DNA from: a virus
Taxonomy: Duplodnaviria > Caudoviricetes
Virus record (IMG/VR): IMGVR_UViG_3300025655_000154
Location: 1-33,938 of that record
Length of the DNA stretch: 33,938 nucleotides
Reading direction: 5' to 3' (one strand)
How positions within the stretch are numbered: the stretch's first letter is position 1; each line of letters begins with the position of its first letter. The notes beneath the pieces are model-generated. The model saw nothing but the letters and a program-made list of their open reading frames with translations. It did no database searches and was not told where the DNA came from. This document shows, in pieces, positions 13,365-33,713 of this stretch. Position numbers and translations under genes: made by a program.

Positions 13365-14894
13365 ATGTCTTTAGCTCGAGATTATGCAAAACTTTTTGCT
13401 GGGCTAAAACAGGCGTATGGAAAGTTTACTCAAACTTCTGACCTTAGAGACGACGGTAAAGTTGGCGGAAAGGTTGTTACTGTATCAGAACAACTAACCG
13501 AAAACAGACTAAGGGAGCTTTGGCAACAGCACTTAGACGGTAAGACTTCGATAGGTATTGTTCCTATAGACGAAGATAATTGCTGTCAATGGGGTGCTAT
13601 AGACGTAGATGATTTTACGCTAGACCTTAAAGGTTTAGCTAAGAAACTACATAAACTAAAGCTTCCATTAGTTCTTTGTCGTAGTAAAAGCGGTGGAGCA
13701 CATATATTTCTGTTTGTTTTTGATCCAGTTCCTGCAATCATTATGCAGAGGAAACTAAAAGACATTGCCGCATGTCTTGGTTTTGGACAGGCAGAAATAT
13801 TCCCTAAACAAACTAAACTATTAATAGAAAGAGGGGATAAAGGAAGTGCTTTAAACATGCCATACTTCGGTGGAGAAGATTCTACTAGATATGGTTATGG
13901 AAACTCTGGAGTTGCTCTTACTCCAGAAGAATTTATAGAACTAGCTAATGAAAGAACTATAACTGCAAAAGAGCTAGAGGAGTATGTTATTGAAGCTTCG
14001 CAAGACGAAGAATGGCTAGACCAAGCTCCTCCCTGTTTACAACACCTAATTACACAAGGCTTTCCTAAAGGAACACGTAATTCAGGATTATTTAACGTAG
14101 GTGTATTCCTTAGAAAGAAATACGAAGATGATTGGGAACACCGTTTAGAACAAGTTAATATGAACTATATGTCACCACCGTTAGTGGCACAAGAAGTTTT
14201 AACAATAATAAAACAAGTTCAGAAAAAAGATTATTTCTATCGTTGTAACGATCAACCTATTGCAGGTCATTGTAATTCAACGGTATGTAGGACTAGAAAG
14301 TTTGGTATAGGGTCATCAGGTGGTACACCGCAGTTTAGTAACCTAACAAAACAAAACTCAGATCCACCGATATGGTTTTTAGATGTAGAAGGTGGAAGGT
14401 TAGAACTAGAAACAGACGACCTACTAAACCAAAACAGATTTCAAAGAAAGTGTATGGATGCACTCAATATAATTCCACCTAGAGTAAAAGATAATGTGTG
14501 GAGACAATTAATACAGCAGTTATTAGATAATTTAACTGTAATAGAAATGCCTGACGACGCTTCTAACGAAGGACACTTTAAAGAATTATTAGAAACTTTT
14601 TGCACAGAAAGACCTGCAAGAGAACGAGATGAGATATTATTACATAAGCCTTGGACTGATGCTTATAAAACCTATTTTAGAGTTAGTGATCTAGTTGATT
14701 ACTTAAATAGAAATGGGTTTAAAGAATATGCTAGAAACAAGATTACTTCTAAGTTAAGGCAAATGGGAGGTGGTGCACACTTCTTCAATATAAAAGGTAA
14801 AGGAACTAACGTTTGGTACGTTCCTGAGTTTGAAACACAAAACGAGGTATTTTCGATACCTAAAGACATAACGGATATAGACGAGGAAATATGA
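13365..14894 (+). CDS. Archaeo-eukaryotic-type (AEP) primase with PriCT-like domain
   Basis: Motif I WGAIDVDD, motif II RSKSGGAHIF, PPC...GTRNSGLF PriCT-like segment, Cys cluster YRCND...HCNSTVC. Confidence 0.8.
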   Translation: MSLARDYAKLFAGLKQAYGKFTQTSDLRDDGKVGGKVVTVSEQLTENRLRELWQQHLDGKTSIGIVPIDEDNCCQWGAIDVDDFTLDLKGLAKKLHKLKLPLVLCRSKSGGAHIFLFVFDPVPAIIMQRKLKDIAACLGFGQAEIFPKQTKLLIERGDKGSALNMPYFGGEDSTRYGYGNSGVALTPEEFIELANERTITAKELEEYVIEASQDEEWLDQAPPCLQHLITQGFPKGTRNSGLFNVGVFLRKKYEDDWEHRLEQVNMNYMSPPLVAQEVLTIIKQVQKKDYFYRCNDQPIAGHCNSTVCRTRKFGIGSSGGTPQFSNLTKQNSDPPIWFLDVEGGRLELETDDLLNQNRFQRKCMDALNIIPPRVKDNVWRQLIQQLLDNLTVIEMPDDASNEGHFKELLETFCTERPARERDEILLHKPWTDAYKTYFRVSDLVDYLNRNGFKEYARNKITSKLRQMGGGAHFFNIKGKGTNVWYVPEFETQNEVFSIPKDITDIDEEI

Positions 14895-15487
14895 TTAAGT
14901 TTATTAAAGGTGGCATGAAAGGTTTTGATCCTTTAATTTATGAATGGGATGAACCTGTAGTTAGAGAATATTGCGGTAAAACTATCTATGGTAGAAAAAC
15001 CAAAGGTTTCGGTGAAGAAAGTTTTGAGTATGCAGGGAAGTTCTACAACCCTTCTCCATGGACTCAGCCTATGAAATATATTAAATGGAATACAGAAAGC
15101 TTAGTAAAGGCACAGATAGGTAAAAAAGTAGATTTTAATTTTTGTTTATGTGGTTTATATGAGGAAGATGGAAAAGGTATCCCTCATCATTCAGATACTG
15201 TTCCTACGTTAGATGATATAGTTGTATCACTTTCTTTTGGTGCACCAAGAATATTTGAATGGAGAGAATACCATTACGATATTAAAAAAGAAACCAATAC
15301 TAGTGAAACATACATAGATTTAGAAGGAAACGCTACTATAACTCATTATCTGCTAGAAGACGGTGATGTACTTATATTTGATGGAGCTTCTCAGATGACA
15401 TCTACACACGCTGTATTAGATGTAGTAGGTGCTAGAGATAGAGTTAACTTGACATTTAGAACAGGAATTAATAATGTCAAACACTAG
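14891..15487 (+). CDS. AlkB-like 2OG-Fe(II) dioxygenase
   Basis: HxD (IPHHSD), VSLSFGAPRIF, distal His (STHAV) and RVNLTFR 2-oxoglutarate-binding motif. Confidence 0.88.
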   Translation: MIKFIKGGMKGFDPLIYEWDEPVVREYCGKTIYGRKTKGFGEESFEYAGKFYNPSPWTQPMKYIKWNTESLVKAQIGKKVDFNFCLCGLYEEDGKGIPHHSDTVPTLDDIVVSLSFGAPRIFEWREYHYDIKKETNTSETYIDLEGNATITHYLLEDGDVLIFDGASQMTSTHAVLDVVGARDRVNLTFRTGINNVKH

Positions 15488-15653
15488 AGAAGATTATATA
15501 AAAGTTGTTGTTAAGTGTGATAATGTAATGCATAAAAATCTAAACGATTTAAAGAAAGCAGCTAAAGAAAAAATATTAAAAGACGAAATAATGTGGGTAG
15601 AAGCTATATCGCCAGCACATAGAAGAAAAGAAAAAATATATGTTGCCGACTAA
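15474..15653 (+). CDS. Small hypothetical protein (59 aa)
   Basis: Read by hand: MSNTREDYIKVVVKCD...KIYVAD; AGGA upstream; overlaps both neighbours and fills the gap. Confidence 0.55.
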   Translation: MSNTREDYIKVVVKCDNVMHKNLNDLKKAAKEKILKDEIMWVEAISPAHRRKEKIYVAD

Positions 15654-17133
15654 AACTCAGGTGATTCTTGGACCTCCAGGAACAGGAAAAACATCTACAT
15701 TATTACAACTTATAGAAAACGAATTAGATAGCGGTGTTTCTCCTAACAAGATTGGTTTCTTTACGTTCACAAAAAGAGCGGTAAATGAGGGTGTTGAGAG
15801 AGCCATGAACAAGTTTTCATTAACTAAAAAAGATTTACCTTATTTTAAAACATTACATTCATTAAGTTTTCATCAGCTTGGATTAAACAAAGAAGATGTG
15901 TTTGAACGTACACATTTAATAGAGCTTAATGATAAATTAAATGTAAAACTTACAGGCTCGCAAAGTACAGAAGACGGAACTATTTACAGTATGACTAAAG
16001 ATGATAGGTTGATGTTTATAGATAACCTAGCAAGAATGAAGAAGTGTTCGCTTGAGGATTTATGGCATGATGTAGAAGACGCTGTGAATTGGTATGCACT
16101 TGATAGATTTAGTAGAGGGTATTCAGCTTATAAGAAAGCTAGACGGTTGTACGATTATACAGATATGTTGCAGTTCTTTTTAGAAAGAGGTTATGCACCA
16201 AAGCTCGATGCACTGTTTATAGATGAAGCACAAGACCTTAGTCCTTTACAGTGGGCGGTAGTTAGAAAGCTTATAGATAGTAGCCATAAAGTATATGTTG
16301 CAGGTGATGATGACCAAGCTATTTATAAGTGGGCAGGTGCAGATGTAGATTATTTAATTAGTAATTGCACGAATGCAACTGTATTAGAACAAAGCTACAG
16401 GATACCTAGCTCTATACACGAACTAGCGAGAAAGACTGTAGGTAGATTAACTAAGAGAGTAGCTAAATCTTGGAAACCTAAAGACGATACAGGCGTGGTT
16501 AGTTGGGAAAGAGGTTTTGAACATATAGATATGAGCGAAGGCTCATGGTTAGTTCTAGGTAGAACAAATTACATATTAGAAAACGTAATAGATCATTGTA
16601 AACACGAGGGTTGGTTTTTTGAGGTTAAAGGTAATCCTAGCGTTGCAGGAGTTAAGTTAGACGCTATTAGAAGTTGGGAACGTTTTAATAAAGGTGAGGA
16701 GCTTACACTACAGGAATGTGGAACGTTTTTAAGATATATAAAGAAAGTAGCTAAAAACCAATTAAAGTTATTTGAGGGAGATCTAAAAGTAGGTAGAACT
16801 CATGTAGAGGGTTTAGTAGGTGTATTGCCTAAAGGTAGGTGGTACGATTGCCTAGATATGATCTCTATAACAGAAAGAAGTTACCTACAAGCTATGCTAA
16901 GACGAGGAGAGAAAGTTTTAAAACAACCACGTATCCGTATATCTACTATTCATGCGGCAAAAGGAGCAGAGGCTGACAACGTAATACTGCTAACCGACAT
17001 GACACATAAAGTTTATAACAGTTATCAACGAGACCCTGACGATGAAACGAGAGTGTTTTACGTTGGTATGACAAGGGCAAAAAAGAGGCTTTACTTGATT
17101 GAACCTACATCAAGGAAATATTTCGACTTGTAA
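15640..17133 (+). CDS. UvrD/Rep-like SF1 helicase
   Basis: GPPGTGKT, IDEAQDLS, AGDDDQAIY, QSYR, STIHAAKGAEAD, YVGMTRAK. Confidence 0.93.
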   Translation: MLPTKTQVILGPPGTGKTSTLLQLIENELDSGVSPNKIGFFTFTKRAVNEGVERAMNKFSLTKKDLPYFKTLHSLSFHQLGLNKEDVFERTHLIELNDKLNVKLTGSQSTEDGTIYSMTKDDRLMFIDNLARMKKCSLEDLWHDVEDAVNWYALDRFSRGYSAYKKARRLYDYTDMLQFFLERGYAPKLDALFIDEAQDLSPLQWAVVRKLIDSSHKVYVAGDDDQAIYKWAGADVDYLISNCTNATVLEQSYRIPSSIHELARKTVGRLTKRVAKSWKPKDDTGVVSWERGFEHIDMSEGSWLVLGRTNYILENVIDHCKHEGWFFEVKGNPSVAGVKLDAIRSWERFNKGEELTLQECGTFLRYIKKVAKNQLKLFEGDLKVGRTHVEGLVGVLPKGRWYDCLDMISITERSYLQAMLRRGEKVLKQPRIRISTIHAAKGAEADNVILLTDMTHKVYNSYQRDPDDETRVFYVGMTRAKKRLYLIEPTSRKYFDL

Positions 17134-17156
17134 AGAGGTTTTTTGTCGTATATAAT
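17128..17156 (+). promoter_or_regulatory. Sigma70-type promoter of the DNA-modification cassette
   Basis: TTGTAA (17128-17133), 17-nt spacer, TATAAT (17151-17156); AGAAAGGAGAAA RBS at 17177-17188. Confidence 0.75.
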
Positions 17157-17191
17157 TTTTATTTTAAAAGTAAACAAGAAAGGAGAAACTT

Positions 17192-18031
17192 ATGCCAAGT
17201 ATAAGAAAAAAATTAACAGCTGAACAAAACCCTAACGATTGTAAAAATACAAGAATGGATATTGCTCATGCTGGAGTGTTCGCTAACTTTAGACCTGATG
17301 AAATAGCTCATATTTCTAGGTTTGAAAAAATAGCTTCATTTCTAATAGATGAATCTAAACGTCAAGGTAGACCGCTAGATACTTTAGAGATAGGTTGCGG
17401 ACAGTTGTGGGTGCTACGAACTTTATATAAGTCTTTTGTAGTTAAGAAATCTGATGTAGTTTCATCTTATTATGGTTACGATATCGACCCTGCCTCATTT
17501 GAAGAAATCAAATTTTGGGCAGGAGAAGGTGGTCATGTAAACGATACTACTTGGATTAAAAACTTTAACGCTACTTTAGAATTAAAAGACGTTAGTGTAG
17601 ATCCGACATTACCCCATAATAGCGAAACTATAGACGTAGCTTGGTCTACCGAAGTTATCGAGCATATGCCAAGAGAAGCTGTAGAGCCTTGGATTGCCGA
17701 GTTAAGTCGTGTGGTAAAAAGTGGTGGAACAGTATTTATCTCAACACCTAACCACGATGGCTCTAACGATAAACTTCCTGAAGACCATATCTACGAGTGG
17801 GGTTTCGAGGAACTAAAAGGGTTGCTTACTAGATACTTTAAACTTGAATCTGTAGTAGGTGTATTTACTCAAACTAAAAAGTTCCAGAAATCTCAAGACG
17901 CTAAACAAATATGGACTCCTGAACAGTTAGACATGTTGAAAGAAAGATATGGAAGACAGTTCTTAAGAGTTGTATTAGCGACTTTTTATCCAGAGACTTC
18001 TAACAACTGTTTTTGGAGATTAACTAAGTAA
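17192..18031 (+). CDS. Class I SAM-dependent methyltransferase
   Basis: Motif I LEIGCG, acidic GYDID, STEVIEHM, KSGGTVFISTPN; lacks the DPPY/PC motifs of DNA methyltransferases. Confidence 0.85.
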   Translation: MPSIRKKLTAEQNPNDCKNTRMDIAHAGVFANFRPDEIAHISRFEKIASFLIDESKRQGRPLDTLEIGCGQLWVLRTLYKSFVVKKSDVVSSYYGYDIDPASFEEIKFWAGEGGHVNDTTWIKNFNATLELKDVSVDPTLPHNSETIDVAWSTEVIEHMPREAVEPWIAELSRVVKSGGTVFISTPNHDGSNDKLPEDHIYEWGFEELKGLLTRYFKLESVVGVFTQTKKFQKSQDAKQIWTPEQLDMLKERYGRQFLRVVLATFYPETSNNCFWRLTK

Positions 18032-18900
18032 TGTTCATAGAGGAAGAACTAGATAGATATATCTATTGGATAGAGGAAAGAGAGAGGATCAGGACTAAAA
18101 AAGAAGAAGAAGGTCTTGATCCTCCTTGGACTGACGACAAGATATTACAGGAGTATAAGTTCTGTCAAGTCTTTAGGGATGACGATAGAACTAGTCGGTG
18201 GTTTATAGAGCATATGCGTGATCCATTAAGAATGTCTCCTGAAGTATTTATGGCTACTGTTATTTTCCGTTGGTTTAATTTAATCCAAACAGGAGAAACT
18301 ATTCTTAAATATGATTTGCATACTGATTGGGATCCAACGATTGCAGATGTACAAATAAGAAAACAAAACCAATGGATAACAGGTGCTTATGTAATTAAAA
18401 GTCCAGACGGATTAGATAAGTTGCAAGGTATTATCAGGTGTATTAATTACATGTGGTATAGAAAAGATGAAATACTAGAAGAAGTTTACAACCGCATGGA
18501 TTCTATGCAAAAGATGTGGGAGTATTTACGAGGTTTTCCATTTCAAGGTCCATTTATGGCTTATGAAATAGTAACTGATTTAAGTTTTACTATGTTTTTA
18601 AAAGACGCTACTGATAGGTTGACTTGGGCTAATGCAGGTCCAGGAGCAATGAGAGGTCTAAACAGACTGACAGGTAGACCATTAGATTTTAAAAAGAAGT
18701 CAAACGATTGGGTTGGAGAAATGAACGAACTTTACGAAATATGTAAGTTGAGATTATCTCCTAGTATATTAAAAAGTAACAGACATGCCTTTGAGTTACG
18801 AGAAATAGAAGGTGGTCTTTGTGAGTTCGATAAGTATTCTAGGATACTAAAAGGAGAAGGAAGAACAAGGAGTAAGTATGTACACAATAAAAGCGTATAA
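18031..18900 (+). CDS. aGPT-Pplase1 / 5-hmdU DNA kinase helical-domain family protein (thymidine hypermodification transferase)
   Basis: PPWTDDKILQEYKFCQVFRDDDRTS, FRWFN, GPFMAYEIVTDL, GPGAMRGL and LCEFDKY match this HhH-glycosylase-fold family as recalled. Confidence 0.8.
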   Translation: MFIEEELDRYIYWIEERERIRTKKEEEGLDPPWTDDKILQEYKFCQVFRDDDRTSRWFIEHMRDPLRMSPEVFMATVIFRWFNLIQTGETILKYDLHTDWDPTIADVQIRKQNQWITGAYVIKSPDGLDKLQGIIRCINYMWYRKDEILEEVYNRMDSMQKMWEYLRGFPFQGPFMAYEIVTDLSFTMFLKDATDRLTWANAGPGAMRGLNRLTGRPLDFKKKSNDWVGEMNELYEICKLRLSPSILKSNRHAFELREIEGGLCEFDKYSRILKGEGRTRSKYVHNKSV

Positions 18901-19876
18901 CGTAAACGATGCTTTTTACAAAGGTTTAGATCTTTTTGGCTCTAACATTAACTATAGAGAATATGAAAGCAGAAACGGTAGAGTGTGGGAACTAAAAGAC
19001 CCAATCACTATTAAATACATTAATCCACACCATAGAGTTTTATTTGATAAATGGAGAGATTGTAATCCTTTTTTCCATTTAGCTGAAGGCTTATGGATGT
19101 TAGCAGGTCGAGGAGATTTAGCTTCTATGGAGCATTACGTTCCTAGAATGTCTGAGTTTTCAGACGATGGAAAAAGTTTATGGGGTGCTTACGGTTATAG
19201 ATGGAGATGGATGTTTGGCACTGATCAACTAAAAACTATTATTAAGATGCTACAAAGAAATCCTGATGATAGACGTTGTGTATTACAGATGTGGGGTGCT
19301 GAACAAGACCTAAACCATTTAGACGGTAAAGGAAAAGACGTGCCTTGTAATACTCAAATTTATTTTAAGATTAGAGACGGTGCTTTACGTATGACCGTAA
19401 CTAATAGGTCTAATGATTTAATATGGGGTTGTTTCGGTGCTAACATGGTTCACTTCAGTATGCTTCATGAATACATGGCAAGTATGATCGGAGTAAAGCT
19501 TGGTGAATATTATCACTTTACTGACAACTTACATATCTATGTAGACTATCCAATATGGAGAGATAAAGTTTCTCAAATAGACACAGAGGTAGGTTTATAC
19601 TGTTATAGAAATGATGACGCTTACCCTGCAAATTTAGTTCCTTTGGTGCTTGAGCCTAGTACCTTTGACCAAGAAGTTAAAGATGTATTAGATCGTGTAG
19701 AAAAAGATAAAGGTTATTATCAAAATCCTTTTCTAGAGTATACAGCAATTCCTGTTATAAATGCTTGGGATCTTTGGAAGAAAGGAGACCTTAATTCAGC
19801 TAAAGATGTTGTTGAAAGCATCGAAGCACAGGATTGGAGGACAGCTTGTTTAAATTATTTACAGAGGAGAAGTTAA
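18878..19876 (+). CDS. Thymidylate synthase homologue, probably dUMP hydroxymethylase
   Basis: GAYGYR, DDRR, catalytic PC (DVPCN), RSNDLIWGCFGAN with the dUMP-selecting Asn, DNLHIY; adjacent to the aGPT-Pplase gene. Confidence 0.85.
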   Translation: MYTIKAYNVNDAFYKGLDLFGSNINYREYESRNGRVWELKDPITIKYINPHHRVLFDKWRDCNPFFHLAEGLWMLAGRGDLASMEHYVPRMSEFSDDGKSLWGAYGYRWRWMFGTDQLKTIIKMLQRNPDDRRCVLQMWGAEQDLNHLDGKGKDVPCNTQIYFKIRDGALRMTVTNRSNDLIWGCFGANMVHFSMLHEYMASMIGVKLGEYYHFTDNLHIYVDYPIWRDKVSQIDTEVGLYCYRNDDAYPANLVPLVLEPSTFDQEVKDVLDRVEKDKGYYQNPFLEYTAIPVINAWDLWKKGDLNSAKDVVESIEAQDWRTACLNYLQRRS

Positions 19877-20200
19877 ATGTCAAATAATTATAAATTAATA
19901 GAAGACTTAGCATGGGGCGATGTCGAAGTATTAAAAGAAGCAGAAAAGTCTTATGGCACAAGTTGGAAACAACGTGGTGGTATAGGTGCTTTTATGATGT
20001 TAGCACGTAAGTGGGATAGGTTAGAAAACCAAGTTAAAAAGAATGGTTACGATGTTTTCCTATCTGCCTTAGAAGACCAAAGAGCCGAAGGTATCTTAGA
20101 CGATATCCGAGACCTTAGACAATACTTACTGCTAGTAGAATCTCATTGCTTAGAACTAATAGCTATAGATAAGCTTGGAGACGAAGTAGAAAGTGATTAA
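19877..20200 (+). CDS. Nmad1/DUF1599-like all-alpha protein (putative dNTP pyrophosphatase)
   Basis: KSYGTSWKQRGGIG...RKWDRLEN...DDIRDLRQY pattern; last gene of the modification cassette. Confidence 0.6.
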   Translation: MSNNYKLIEDLAWGDVEVLKEAEKSYGTSWKQRGGIGAFMMLARKWDRLENQVKKNGYDVFLSALEDQRAEGILDDIRDLRQYLLLVESHCLELIAIDKLGDEVESD

Positions 20201-24468: not shown

Positions 24469-24810
24469 ATGGCAAAAGCAGCAAAAAAAGTCGACACTAA
24501 AGTCGCAACACCCCCAAAGGCTACAGGTAAAATATCAATACCTGCACCTGTAAAGAAGACTAGAGCTACCTCTGAGTCTTTAACGGTTAGAATTAAACAG
24601 CTTCCAGACGGTTCTGCGAAGTTACCTAACCAAATGTGGTCTATTCTTGAAGCATTAGAAACCTTTAAGAATAAGCAAGCTAATGTGAATGACCTTATGA
24701 CTTACGCTAGTAAGGAAGGCATACTCACTACTTGTCAAAGTCCTATGAGAATCTTTCGTTTTTATAAGAAAAGGTTTCTCGATGAAGGGATCTTGGAAGT
24801 TGTTAGCTAA
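24469..24810 (+). CDS. Winged-helix-like basic protein, paralogue 1
   Basis: C-terminal TTCQSPMRIFRFYKKRFLDEGILEV aligns by eye with 32826 and 33408 proteins; K/A/P-rich N-terminal tail. Confidence 0.7.
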   Translation: MAKAAKKVDTKVATPPKATGKISIPAPVKKTRATSESLTVRIKQLPDGSAKLPNQMWSILEALETFKNKQANVNDLMTYASKEGILTTCQSPMRIFRFYKKRFLDEGILEVVS

Positions 24811-25897: not shown

Positions 25898-26212
25898 ATG
25901 AAAAGTTGTTTGATCTGTTTTAAAGAAATATCGAAAGGTGAATTTTGCAGCGATGAATGTAGAGCTAAACAGTATAAACACACTGGTTCAACTTACGGTC
26001 AAGGAGGAGATCCAGAAACTTATTCAGCTTATGCTTGTTCTTACGATGAATACCCAGTCGATCAAGGTATTTTACAATTAGCAGAAGCTAATGAGTCAGC
26101 CTTTAAATGGAATCAAGAAGCTTTAATGAGGGTGGGTTCATCCTCTAGAGGTAAAGAAAGGTTTGGAAAACAGAAAAAACCTAGAAAAAATACATTAAAT
26201 AGTTTTTCGTAA
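25898..26212 (+). CDS. Small protein with N-terminal CxxC...FCSxxC Zn finger
   Basis: CLICFKEISKGEFCSDEC; no clear SD, possibly leaderless (TATGAT ends 6 nt before ATG). Confidence 0.6.
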   Translation: MKSCLICFKEISKGEFCSDECRAKQYKHTGSTYGQGGDPETYSAYACSYDEYPVDQGILQLAEANESAFKWNQEALMRVGSSSRGKERFGKQKKPRKNTLNSFS

Positions 26213-26214
26213 AT

Positions 26215-26246
26215 CGCTTTACTTTCGGTTAAATGGGCTTTACTAT
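26215..26246 (+). promoter_or_regulatory. Repeated phage promoter
   Basis: CGC-TTTACT-TT, 17 nt, TACTAT; ATAGGAGAAA RBS follows. Confidence 0.8.
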
Positions 26247-26278
26247 TTATATAGTTAATAATTTTTATAGGAGAAATT

Positions 26279-26476
26279 ATGAAAGCAGAATGTAGAATTT
26301 GTTCAGAGCCAGTTGACGAAGGTCGCTGGGCTCTAGGTAGAAATACCTGTTTAGAATGTGGTGAGATACAAGCTAGAGAGCTTGCCACCAAAAGACGTAT
26401 GCAGATTGCTCCGATGTATAACAAAGGTGCATATCAGTATATAACTGAAAACGATCTACTACATATTGGTAGATAA
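26279..26476 (+). CDS. DksA/TraR-like C4 Zn-finger microprotein
   Basis: CRICSEPVDEGRWALGRNTCLEC plus APMYNKGAYQYI tail; lacks the DksA acidic coiled coil. Confidence 0.65.
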   Translation: MKAECRICSEPVDEGRWALGRNTCLECGEIQARELATKRRMQIAPMYNKGAYQYITENDLLHIGR

Positions 26477-26477
26477 A

Positions 26478-26941
26478 TTTTTGTGTGCGAGGGGTGAAGG
26501 TGAAATTAGCTGTTACTGAGCCTTCCACTTGGTGCTAACGAGATTCACGAGGTTAGTTAAATGAGACTTGTTAAACACTCAAGCCAAGCGATACTCCAAC
26601 AGCCCACACGAAAACGTAGTTAGGAAAGAGCCTTGTAAAAGCCTTTGAAAAATAAGGTTAGGATAAAAGTAAATGAGAACTACACCTTCATGCACTAACT
26701 ACAAATGTAAGGTGTCCTGTTAAGCGATTAGTACAGGAATGGACTTAAATAGCTTCCTGTTGGATGGGTTTATAAGCATCCTATAAACATTGCCTTACAC
26801 CCTAGTATAGCCAGTGATTGGTCGTACAACAATCCGTCACTGAGTAGCCAACGGATACTGGTTATACTATGTGGTCAACAAATAGTCATTAATTGTTGTT
26901 AAAGATAAATTGAAACAAATGCATACTAAATTTATCGCCAC
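26478..26941 (+). ncRNA. Large multi-domain structured RNA region (unclassified)
   Basis: No ORF in the track; five abutting domains each closed by a helix: 26478-26614, 26616-26702, 26706-26799, 26803-26869, 26871-26941; G-U wobbles favour the + strand. Confidence 0.7.
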
Positions 26942-26960
26942 GCCTTTTTAGAGAAAGTTT

Positions 26961-27134
26961 ATGAAAGAAAATACAGATAAAAAACAGTGTCATAAAGATG
27001 CTCATGACTGGGGTTACAGTTATAATATTGGAGTATTAGGAACATTAGTTTCTATATTTGAATGTGAGAATTGTGGATTACGTATGAATAATCCTGATTC
27101 TACAATTATTAAGGAGAAGAAGAAAAATGTCTGA
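26961..27134 (+). CDS. Small putative Zn-binding protein (57 aa)
   Basis: Read by hand: MKENTDKKQCHKDAHDW...FECENCG...; overlaps next start. Confidence 0.55.
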   Translation: MKENTDKKQCHKDAHDWGYSYNIGVLGTLVSIFECENCGLRMNNPDSTIIKEKKKNV

Positions 27135-27808: not shown

Positions 27809-27951
27809 TGAGTCAGGAACTCCTATTAATATCGTTGCGAGGGGCAACGTCAAGAAACTATACTTCCTGACTCAAACAAATCGGTAAAAGTTTTTAATCA
27901 TTTTGTTTTCTTTTATCGGTTAATTCATAATCTGTATAGTTTCTACCCCTC
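27809..27951 (+). ncRNA. Putative double-pseudoknot RNA with anti-SD and anti-start-codon loops
   Basis: Perfect 11-bp helices 27809-27819/27864-27874 and 27853-27863/27934-27944; hairpin 27833-27849; 12-bp hairpin 27879-27921; GAGGG(G)/(C)CCCTC pairing. Confidence 0.7.
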
Positions 27952-32825: not shown

Positions 32826-33107
32826 ATGAAAAAACTTGATATGCCAAACGTGACTGTTAGATCTAGACAAGGTGTGACAGCATACAAACTAACTTGCGAG
32901 TCTATTCCAAAGATCGCACCACAGGCTCAGCTGATCCTCTGGGCGGTTAGCGAGTGTGCTGACAAGAATGGTCTAGCGACAGTTGAGAACATTGCCGAGT
33001 TCCTAAAAGGTGTCGACAATTTCAAAACTGTCCAGCCAGTCATTAGGGTAATTAGACATTACCAAAAAGATATGGCTGATCGAGGTCTGATAGAGCTCGT
33101 AGCCTAA
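32826..33107 (+). CDS. Winged-helix-like protein, paralogue 2
   Basis: PQAQLIL...KTVQPVIRVIRHYQKDMADRGLIELV. Confidence 0.7.
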   Translation: MKKLDMPNVTVRSRQGVTAYKLTCESIPKIAPQAQLILWAVSECADKNGLATVENIAEFLKGVDNFKTVQPVIRVIRHYQKDMADRGLIELVA

Positions 33108-33407: not shown

Positions 33408-33713
33408 ATGAGTAAGAAAGTAAACTTAACCTTTAAAGCTACTAAGTCCGTTCGCAAGGGCAATCAGGTTTCCGCTTATACGCTTAACCCTGATAACTTA
33501 GGCGAGGCTAATAAAATGGCTGGGCAAGCTCAAGCTATAGTAGCTACGCTAGTAGAACTAGCTAACGAAACAGGTAGCTTAACTATTACTAGGGAAAAGC
33601 TACTTGATAGCCTTAACGCTACTAACGTTTTAGATAGCGTACAACCTACAGGTAAAGTCGTTAGCCATTACCATAAGAAACTACAATCGTATGGCGTATT
33701 AGAACTAATCTAA
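33408..33713 (+). CDS. Winged-helix-like protein, paralogue 3
   Basis: GQAQAIV...DSVQPTGKVVSHYHKKLQSYGVLELI. Confidence 0.7.
   Translation: MSKKVNLTFKATKSVRKGNQVSAYTLNPDNLGEANKMAGQAQAIVATLVELANETGSLTITREKLLDSLNATNVLDSVQPTGKVVSHYHKKLQSYGVLELI

Follow-up and report, generated by a model that had tools for sequence, protein, structure and literature searches.

The RNA decoys described so far imitate a host RNA that can be recognised, in many cases by repeating a single unit, and each of the known large non-coding RNAs has a single, fixed architecture. The accessible part of one report describes pseudo-ToxI of phage PhiTE as a phage RNA decoy that mimics the type III system ToxIN (PMC3475682), and that of another describes the Racrs, small phage RNAs that mimic solitary CRISPR repeats and tie up a host complex (PMC10651486). 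The PeSL cassettes of the T4-type phages RB49 and phi1 are, in the portion of the source available, portable non-coding elements with sigma70-like promoters that are shuffled by recombination in a variable region (PMC2839356). Here we describe a phage array that is a real, expressed and uncatalogued system of portable RNA domains, the structure and modularity of which are well supported. We tentatively propose, at a probability of roughly 0.4, that the array is a trans-acting phage non-coding RNA whose modules serve as exchangeable decoys or aptamers against host factors.

The window analysed here is the whole of a linear viral record (33,938 bases; estimated completeness 57%), and the DNA polymerase it encodes shares 47-52% identity with the polymerases of HTVC023P, HTVC027P, 023Pt_psg01 and DSL-LC04. 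The array sits amid small genes without functional annotation, with the polymerase on one side and the small terminase on the other. Positions 26478-26941 are free of open reading frames on the + strand and consist of five closed RNA modules, D1 to D5, which by prediction fold independently of each other, and an arm nested in D1. Directly 5' of the array lies a 65-aa gene with a CxxC..CxxC motif (26279-26476, + strand), a homologue of which is annotated by one source as 'predicted nucleic acid-binding Zn ribbon protein', and the next ORF 3' of the array begins at 26961. The geometry reported by the initial annotation held throughout: the array starts 1 nt past a stop codon (the 65-aa ORF terminates at 26476, and D1 starts at 26478), all five closing helices, the four inner helices of D1 and the pseudoknot GCTGTT (26509-26514)/AACAGC (26598-26603) were recovered in place, and the domains, given as 1-3 nt apart, are joined by linkers of 1, 3, 3 and 1 nt. 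The sole ORF that overlaps the array is a 51-aa minus-strand frame with a GTG start over its first 51 nt. A coding role was rejected, because homologues differ by so many indels and swaps that no reading frame can be common to them.

Elsewhere in the window, genes for a thymidylate synthase homologue and for methyltransferase-like and alkylated-DNA-repair-like proteins are clustered ahead of the polymerase (14891-20200), which may hint at modified DNA bases. Three small proteins (24469-24810, 32826-33107 and 33408-33713), with no PHROG family and C-terminal ends that look alike by eye, are apparently paralogues. A lone strong fold with an 11-bp closing stem and an inner hairpin (27809-27874, z -5.4) follows a 102-aa ORF; nhmmer returned no further variant of this element, and in two other loci (L079, L080) an entire array is placed after a homologue of the same ORF.

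D1 (26478-26614, + strand) comprises a closing stem P1, an invariant CGA, and helices P2 (26491-26495/26593-26597) and P3 (26496-26500/26521-26525), with the loop of P3 pairing with 26598-26603 to form the pseudoknot; it also contains a helix, GGGGT/ACTCC, beyond those initially annotated. The P4 slot of D1 is swappable, the distance between P3 and P2' ranging from 7 to 81 nt, and here it houses arm A (26526-26590, + strand), a three-way module that is free-standing in other phages and has a predicted 5-bp loop-loop pairing, which is invariant and hence outside the reach of covariation. D2 (26616-26702, + strand) has a conserved core, made up of the closing stem, a CCTT/AAGG helix with an A-rich bulge and a 3-bp helix (26626-26628/26686-26688), and a swappable stem tip that bears other modules in other arrays; its 41 variants have a middle part of 30-164 nt. 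D3 (26706-26799, + strand) consists of four helices, a GNRA tetraloop and two pseudoknots absent from the initial annotation, one of which (26714-26717/26741-26744) covaries and the other (26768-26772/26784-26788) is invariant. D4 (26803-26869, + strand) is a three-way junction on a 13-bp closing stem; two sequence types of it were seen, between which the closing pairs are, by eye, compensated. D5 (26871-26941, + strand) carries two hairpins on a closing stem; its two types have stems that by eye are wholly different yet paired, and the predicted loop-loop pairing is AGT/ACT in one type and GGT/ACC in the other. D5 is the last module in 8/8 DNA arrays, and in two loci (L058, L071) it stands alone behind a promoter-like site. 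The 3-bp helix of D2 and the likely loop-loop pairings of arm A and D5 are likewise absent from the initial annotation. The smallest natural forms measure ~75 nt for D1 and 94 nt for D3.

Several resemblances extend beyond these modules. A D2-like module with the bulged helix of D2 and a different terminal loop (L003-L006, L184) suggests that D2 belongs to a wider superfamily, and a TRTAAA-bulged helix recurs in several inserts. Modules in four loci (L163, L173, L187, L191) have closing stems near-identical to those of D2 and D4 of the window (of the type GTAGYYAG...CTRRCTAC) around different cores; such stems could possibly be recombination handles or a shared protein-binding site.

The unconstrained minimum free energy (MFE) of the + strand was ordinary (z -0.64, with 24/100 shuffles as good), the - strand folded better than the + strand (z -2.51), and, among the modules folded singly on the + strand, D4 alone stood out (z -2.7). 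RNAfold with a pair span of ≤140 nt returned exactly the five domains (z -2.0), and local folding at other span limits gave z -1.4 and -1.5. By a statistic devised for this analysis, the best chain of back-to-back helices amounted to 46 bp, compared with a mean of 33.5 and a maximum of 42 among 100 shuffles, none of which reached 46. The initial annotation would have given up a structured RNA that was no more stable than shuffled sequence; such equality was indeed seen for the global MFE, and it is outweighed by covariation, which decides whether the structure is real; the global MFE is uninformative.

Covariation among homologues, the check that the initial annotation had itself named, was evident for D1, D3 and arm A, the pseudoknot pairs of D1 and D3 included. 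The sequences compared are related to each other and the shuffle control is not a probability; the search patterns fixed some positions and left the covarying ones free, and the closing stem of D1 was wholly unconstrained. In D1 (19 sequences; 98.6% of cells paired) 12/23 pairs, among them 3/6 of the pseudoknot, were altered on both sides, a value reached by 0/500 shuffles, and controls in which the pairing was slid were 29-45% paired. In D3 (14 sequences; 96.6% paired) both sides had changed in 10/34 pairs, including 3/4 of one pseudoknot; this count of double changes was reached by 3/500 shuffles, and a measure of further pair types fell below the shuffles. Arm A (8 sequences; 93.5% paired) had 7/23 pairs altered on both sides, and the 3-bp helix of D2 was paired in 35/36 cells across 12 core types, as GTG/CAC, AAG/CTT or ATG/CAT. 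The stems of D1 and D3 covary while their loop and junction bases stay invariant. The alternation of G-U with A-U and G-C at the paired positions establishes the + strand as the RNA strand.

The impression that the region matches no familiar RNA class was confirmed by searches. Rfam 15 at the gathering threshold gave no match in the window or in 20 related loci, nothing fell within 26478-26941 at E≤10, and the minimal forms of D1 and D3 yielded chance-level matches alone (best E 1.4). ARAGORN found no tRNA or tmRNA in the window and a tmRNA in 0/42 carrier records, and RF00023 was not matched; among 60 loci scanned, the only tRNA was a tRNA-Tyr lying a few bases 3' of a D1 module (L191, 1333-1415, - strand). 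Cultured phages gave chance-level matches of 30-42 nt for the window region and none for three related arrays, a D1 model had no hit in the portions examined of DSL-LC04 and 023Pt_psg01, two relatives that are cultured or named, and the D2 pattern had two matches in GTDB genomes, both without the stems. No description of such module arrays was found in the literature, of which few subscription papers were within reach, and six motif terms had no match in six supplementary files of PMC10690425; single modules may already be among the candidates of that source. A retron or another reverse transcriptase-associated RNA was rejected, the one reverse transcriptase family searched (RVT_1, PF00078) being absent from 42/42 carrier records and from all 10 that are near-complete. 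A reading as transposon ends of the TG...CA type was likewise rejected, because the ends of the closing stems vary.

We considered how far the array extends among phages. The upstream 65-aa gene was present in 40 loci, of which 2 were identical to the window, 5 contained parts of the array and 33 had no similarity to it, and an array behind this gene was confined to close relatives (L001-L006, L039). Relatives in which the upstream protein is 78-82% identical carry different sets of modules at this position: in L005, D1 with arm A is retained and a D5 variant comes last, L006 has D1 with another insert, and L003 and L039 are without D1. L004 and L039 lie on one contig, so that the locus occurs there in two versions, with and without D1, reflecting either assembly strain mixing or a genuine duplication. 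Pattern scans of viral contigs and one metagenome scan placed the modules in many other contigs. After removal of duplicates and of chance matches, the latter by inspection or stricter patterns (for example L049-L052, L059-L067, L074, L076, L078, L083, L085, L149, L167, L185, L186 and L197), 142 records were condensed to 70 non-redundant arrays, some with imprecise boundaries. Scored with 30 motifs hand-picked from the arrays themselves, the 70 arrays displayed 56 signature orders, and every signature was found in at least two arrays. Each of the pairs D1/D2, D1/D3, D2/D3, A/D2 and A/D3 was seen in both orders, partly through nesting. The window has D1-D2-D3-D4-D5 and another array (L073) has D3-D2-D1-(other)-D4. 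By eye, and in one contig each, D3 lies within a module within D2 (L151) and appears as a circular permutation (L168). In 26/70 arrays (for example L097, L103, L113, L115 and L133) the final signature is a small pseudoknot of the H type whose loop is A-rich, in many cases stacked behind another pseudoknot module; the array of the window lacks it, and it may resemble the knots of tmRNA. The initial annotation had inferred a new large phage non-coding RNA. That it is a new phage non-coding RNA is upheld by the covariation, by the RNA contigs described below and by the Rfam searches, whereas a single large RNA class is not, since the five modules recur alone, reordered and nested in other phage contigs. 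The same freedom of order, number and nesting fits poorly with the fixed geometry expected if the modules were RNA-RNA interaction units that form a scaffold, cage or condensate like ROOL, GOLLD or manA, and all the conserved pairings found are satisfied inside a module. The apparent abundance of the RNA, the loop-loop and A-rich bulge elements, and the cages that manA (RF01745) and other short RNAs of natural origin form according to the available part of 10.64898/2026.07.01.735769 speak for such an assembly, which we nevertheless consider quite unlikely.

The carriers belong to two phage lineages with almost no genes in common. The polymerase of the window had a match in 29/42 carrier records (4 at 83-100%, 4 at 58-60% and 21 at 25-36% identity) and none in G008, and two carriers (G034, G039) have a T7-like primase-helicase, polymerase and ribonucleotide reductase. 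No protein family was present in all 8 carrier genomes compared, two of which were partly covered, the window itself being incomplete; G034, G039 and G041 have one or two families in common with the window. Since arm A of G034 is identical to that of the window at 54/57 positions even though these phages have just two protein families in common, we infer lateral exchange, which in turn would imply a shared host. The patchy presence of the array, absent from most loci of the upstream gene, together with closing stems common to different cores and the DNA-level shuffling of PeSL cassettes in phage variable regions (available part of PMC2839356), might be expected of selfish or near-neutral mobile elements or DNA hairpins, spread by recombination without benefit to the phage. 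We regard this as very unlikely: G-U pairs, GNRA loops, covarying pseudoknots and RNA contigs indicate selection on RNA, RVT_1 is missing from the carriers, and the known modules formed one array per genome in 7/7 larger records.

Parts of 26200-27000 are contained in 14 RNA runs, labelled aquatic, freshwater and salt marsh. Four of these metatranscriptomes, from four studies and picked by the same interval, were mapped onto the region; the resulting contigs give presence and not strand, ends or level. Contigs within 26494-26947 were obtained in 4/4 mapped runs at a depth of 4-56, whereas the remaining 3.1 kb of flanks yielded a single 151-nt contig, which lies on the 65-aa gene at a depth of 2.7, and one dissimilar contig that matches the upstream terminator over 32 nt. 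The bare flanks, by which alone DNA carry-over is excluded, lend weak support to a selective presence of RNA over the array, weak because 26200-27000 was the interval by which the runs were picked and because the contigs could conceivably come from a relative that has this array between other flanks. In 3/4 runs a single unbroken contig of 405-420 nt leads from inside D1 into D5, and processing of the array into separate RNAs, which the initial annotation had offered as an alternative, is not favoured, partial processing being compatible with the contigs. Other RNA contigs differ in order, having either D1, then a D3 variant and D2, or D3-D4-D5 flanked by different neighbours at each end.

These contigs bear on whether some modules, chiefly D1 and D3, are new self-cleaving ribozymes or processing elements, for instance ones that cut the array from the upstream mRNA at the CGA of D1. 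Ribozymes would be in keeping with cores that are compact and pseudoknotted, junction bases that never vary, a variable arm that can be dispensed with and a single apparent permutation, and the three stems of D1, with a pseudoknot joining a hairpin loop to the junction that the other two stems form, have the connectivity of a circularly permuted pistol ribozyme (available part of PMC4604425), a source which, in the same part, also places ribozymes commonly near phage genes and other ribozymes. The pistol ribozyme has a strictly conserved 2-nt cleavage junction that separates P3 from P2 (PMC4604425, part available) as opposed to the 3-nt junction of D1, which was CGA in 19/19 aligned sequences, CGA having formed part of the search pattern, and no Rfam ribozyme was matched. 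D1 is the first signature in 13/20 arrays that have it, and its CGA was not covered by any mapped contig, the earliest starting at 26494; on the other hand, D1 also occurs mid-array and last, and the contigs of the 3/4 runs pass unbroken through the 3' part of D1, D2, D3 and D4. We consider ribozyme activity unlikely.

The ends of the arrays were inspected for transcription signals. A candidate promoter, TTTACT-17-TACTAT (26218-26246, + strand), matches the consensus weakly, at 8/12 positions, and was missed by our promoter scan; judged by its sequence, it likely drives both the 65-aa gene and the array. Counts in the promoter and terminator scan of the window were no higher than in shuffles. 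CGCTTTACTTT recurs 5' of early genes of the window at 26215, 27958 and 33335, where it probably constitutes the -35 region of a common promoter. Promoter-like sites (≥9/12) ending 3-16 nt ahead of the first module were seen in 11 arrays, and in 7/11 the first stem begins 6-7 nt past the -10 hexamer. At the other end, a T-run after the last module (26945-26949, + strand) is a candidate 3' end: TTTT is found within 10 nt after 30/37 last modules as against 7/54 internal ones, an excess part of which T-richness ahead of ribosome-binding sites could account for.

The last modules end 15-39 nt 5' of a start codon, and this, followed by the T-run, together with the position of the first stem relative to the promoter-like sites, would also be expected if the modules acted in cis on neighbouring early mRNAs as riboswitch-like leaders, nuclease blocks or terminators. 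Presumably, the D1 loop is similar to the T-loop found in the FMN and cobalamin riboswitches, and we take D5 to resemble the tuning fork of purine riboswitches, neither being a match. A cis role is nonetheless improbable: the ribosome-binding site lies outside the last stem, no switching hairpin was seen, the same module precedes unrelated genes (64 downstream ORFs fall into 37 families), the ORFs downstream were without an RNA contig, and dozens of distinct folds would be superfluous if protection were the sole task. A riboswitch in the strict sense was rejected, both for the distance of the last stem from the start codon, which is at odds with an expression platform that overlaps a terminator or ribosome-binding site, and for the lack of a consistent class of downstream gene.

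We return to the proposal that the array is a trans-acting RNA of decoys or aptamers. Since modules survive changes of position, neighbour and nesting, their function would reside in the local three-dimensional fold or surface and not in order or ends, and since no phage gene travels with them, the partner likely comes from the host. Counter-defence genes turn over fast in the variable early region. It is this turnover, the local-fold function, the absence of a co-travelling phage gene and the selective presence of RNA, which suits a stoichiometric role, that lead us to favour decoys, and the varied downstream genes and the lack of a protein family in all carriers examined are in keeping with them. 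Against this, the modules resemble no known host RNA open to mimicry in Rfam or, for the D2 pattern, in GTDB, the 15-39 nt spacing to the start codon equally fits a role in cis, and pseudoknotted permutable cores with variable arms equally fit ribozymes. According to the proposed mechanism, host RNA polymerase would transcribe the array, here through the 65-aa gene and in other arrays from a promoter 6-7 nt before the first closing stem, and base-paired ends and a U-tail would confer stability on the RNA. During infection the array RNA would then serve as a trans-acting, multivalent decoy, in which each module likely binds and ties up one host factor, be it a defence protein, an RNA-binding protein or a nucleotide signal, so that its target would be host-encoded and its role one of counter-defence or host takeover. 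Modules would be exchanged by DNA recombination between co-infecting phages at short common stems.

The modules may differ in function from one another. As a broader and still more tentative possibility, aquatic phages could keep a shared, recombining library of dozens of RNA aptamers, strung together and nested in one abundant transcript per genome, in which some would soak up immune nucleotide signals or inhibit host defence proteins and others would be new ribozymes; if true, this would be the RNA counterpart of anti-defence gene cassettes, and if the modules are decoys they would constitute a new layer of phage-host conflict. Whatever the function, the arrays offer some 30 candidates for new RNA folds, 60-140 nt in size, several of them with covariation, and show that folded RNA domains evolve like swappable protein domains, with free order, number and nesting, and that near-identical modules cross phage lineages.

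Among the closest known systems, pseudo-ToxI is likewise a phage non-coding RNA array that evolves through expansion and recombination (available part of PMC3475682), and it has in common with our array the decoy logic that we propose. Whereas pseudo-ToxI repeats one host-like unit, the array described here combines many unrelated folds with no known host original; a type III antitoxin mimic with tandem near-identical repeats was rejected, as blastn and nhmmer gave one match per module in the copies of the window itself and the five modules are unrelated. The Racrs differ in that our modules are multi-helix folds of 60-140 nt without a CRISPR-repeat match in Rfam. PeSL cassettes consist of a promoter and a terminator stem-loop, are dispersed and move genes, whereas here complex RNA folds are themselves the cargo; with one array per genome in the 7/7 records and modules that are multi-helix and pseudoknotted, the array is not a PeSL cassette. 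Finally, the large ornate RNAs ROOL, GOLLD and OLE (accessible part of PMC12286853) and the RNAs manA and EGFOA (10.64898/2026.07.01.735769, accessible part) are intricate non-coding folds of unknown function that measure several hundred bases or less; each of these has a conserved architecture and an Rfam model, in contrast to the array of the window, which has no Rfam match and whose modules are free in their order.
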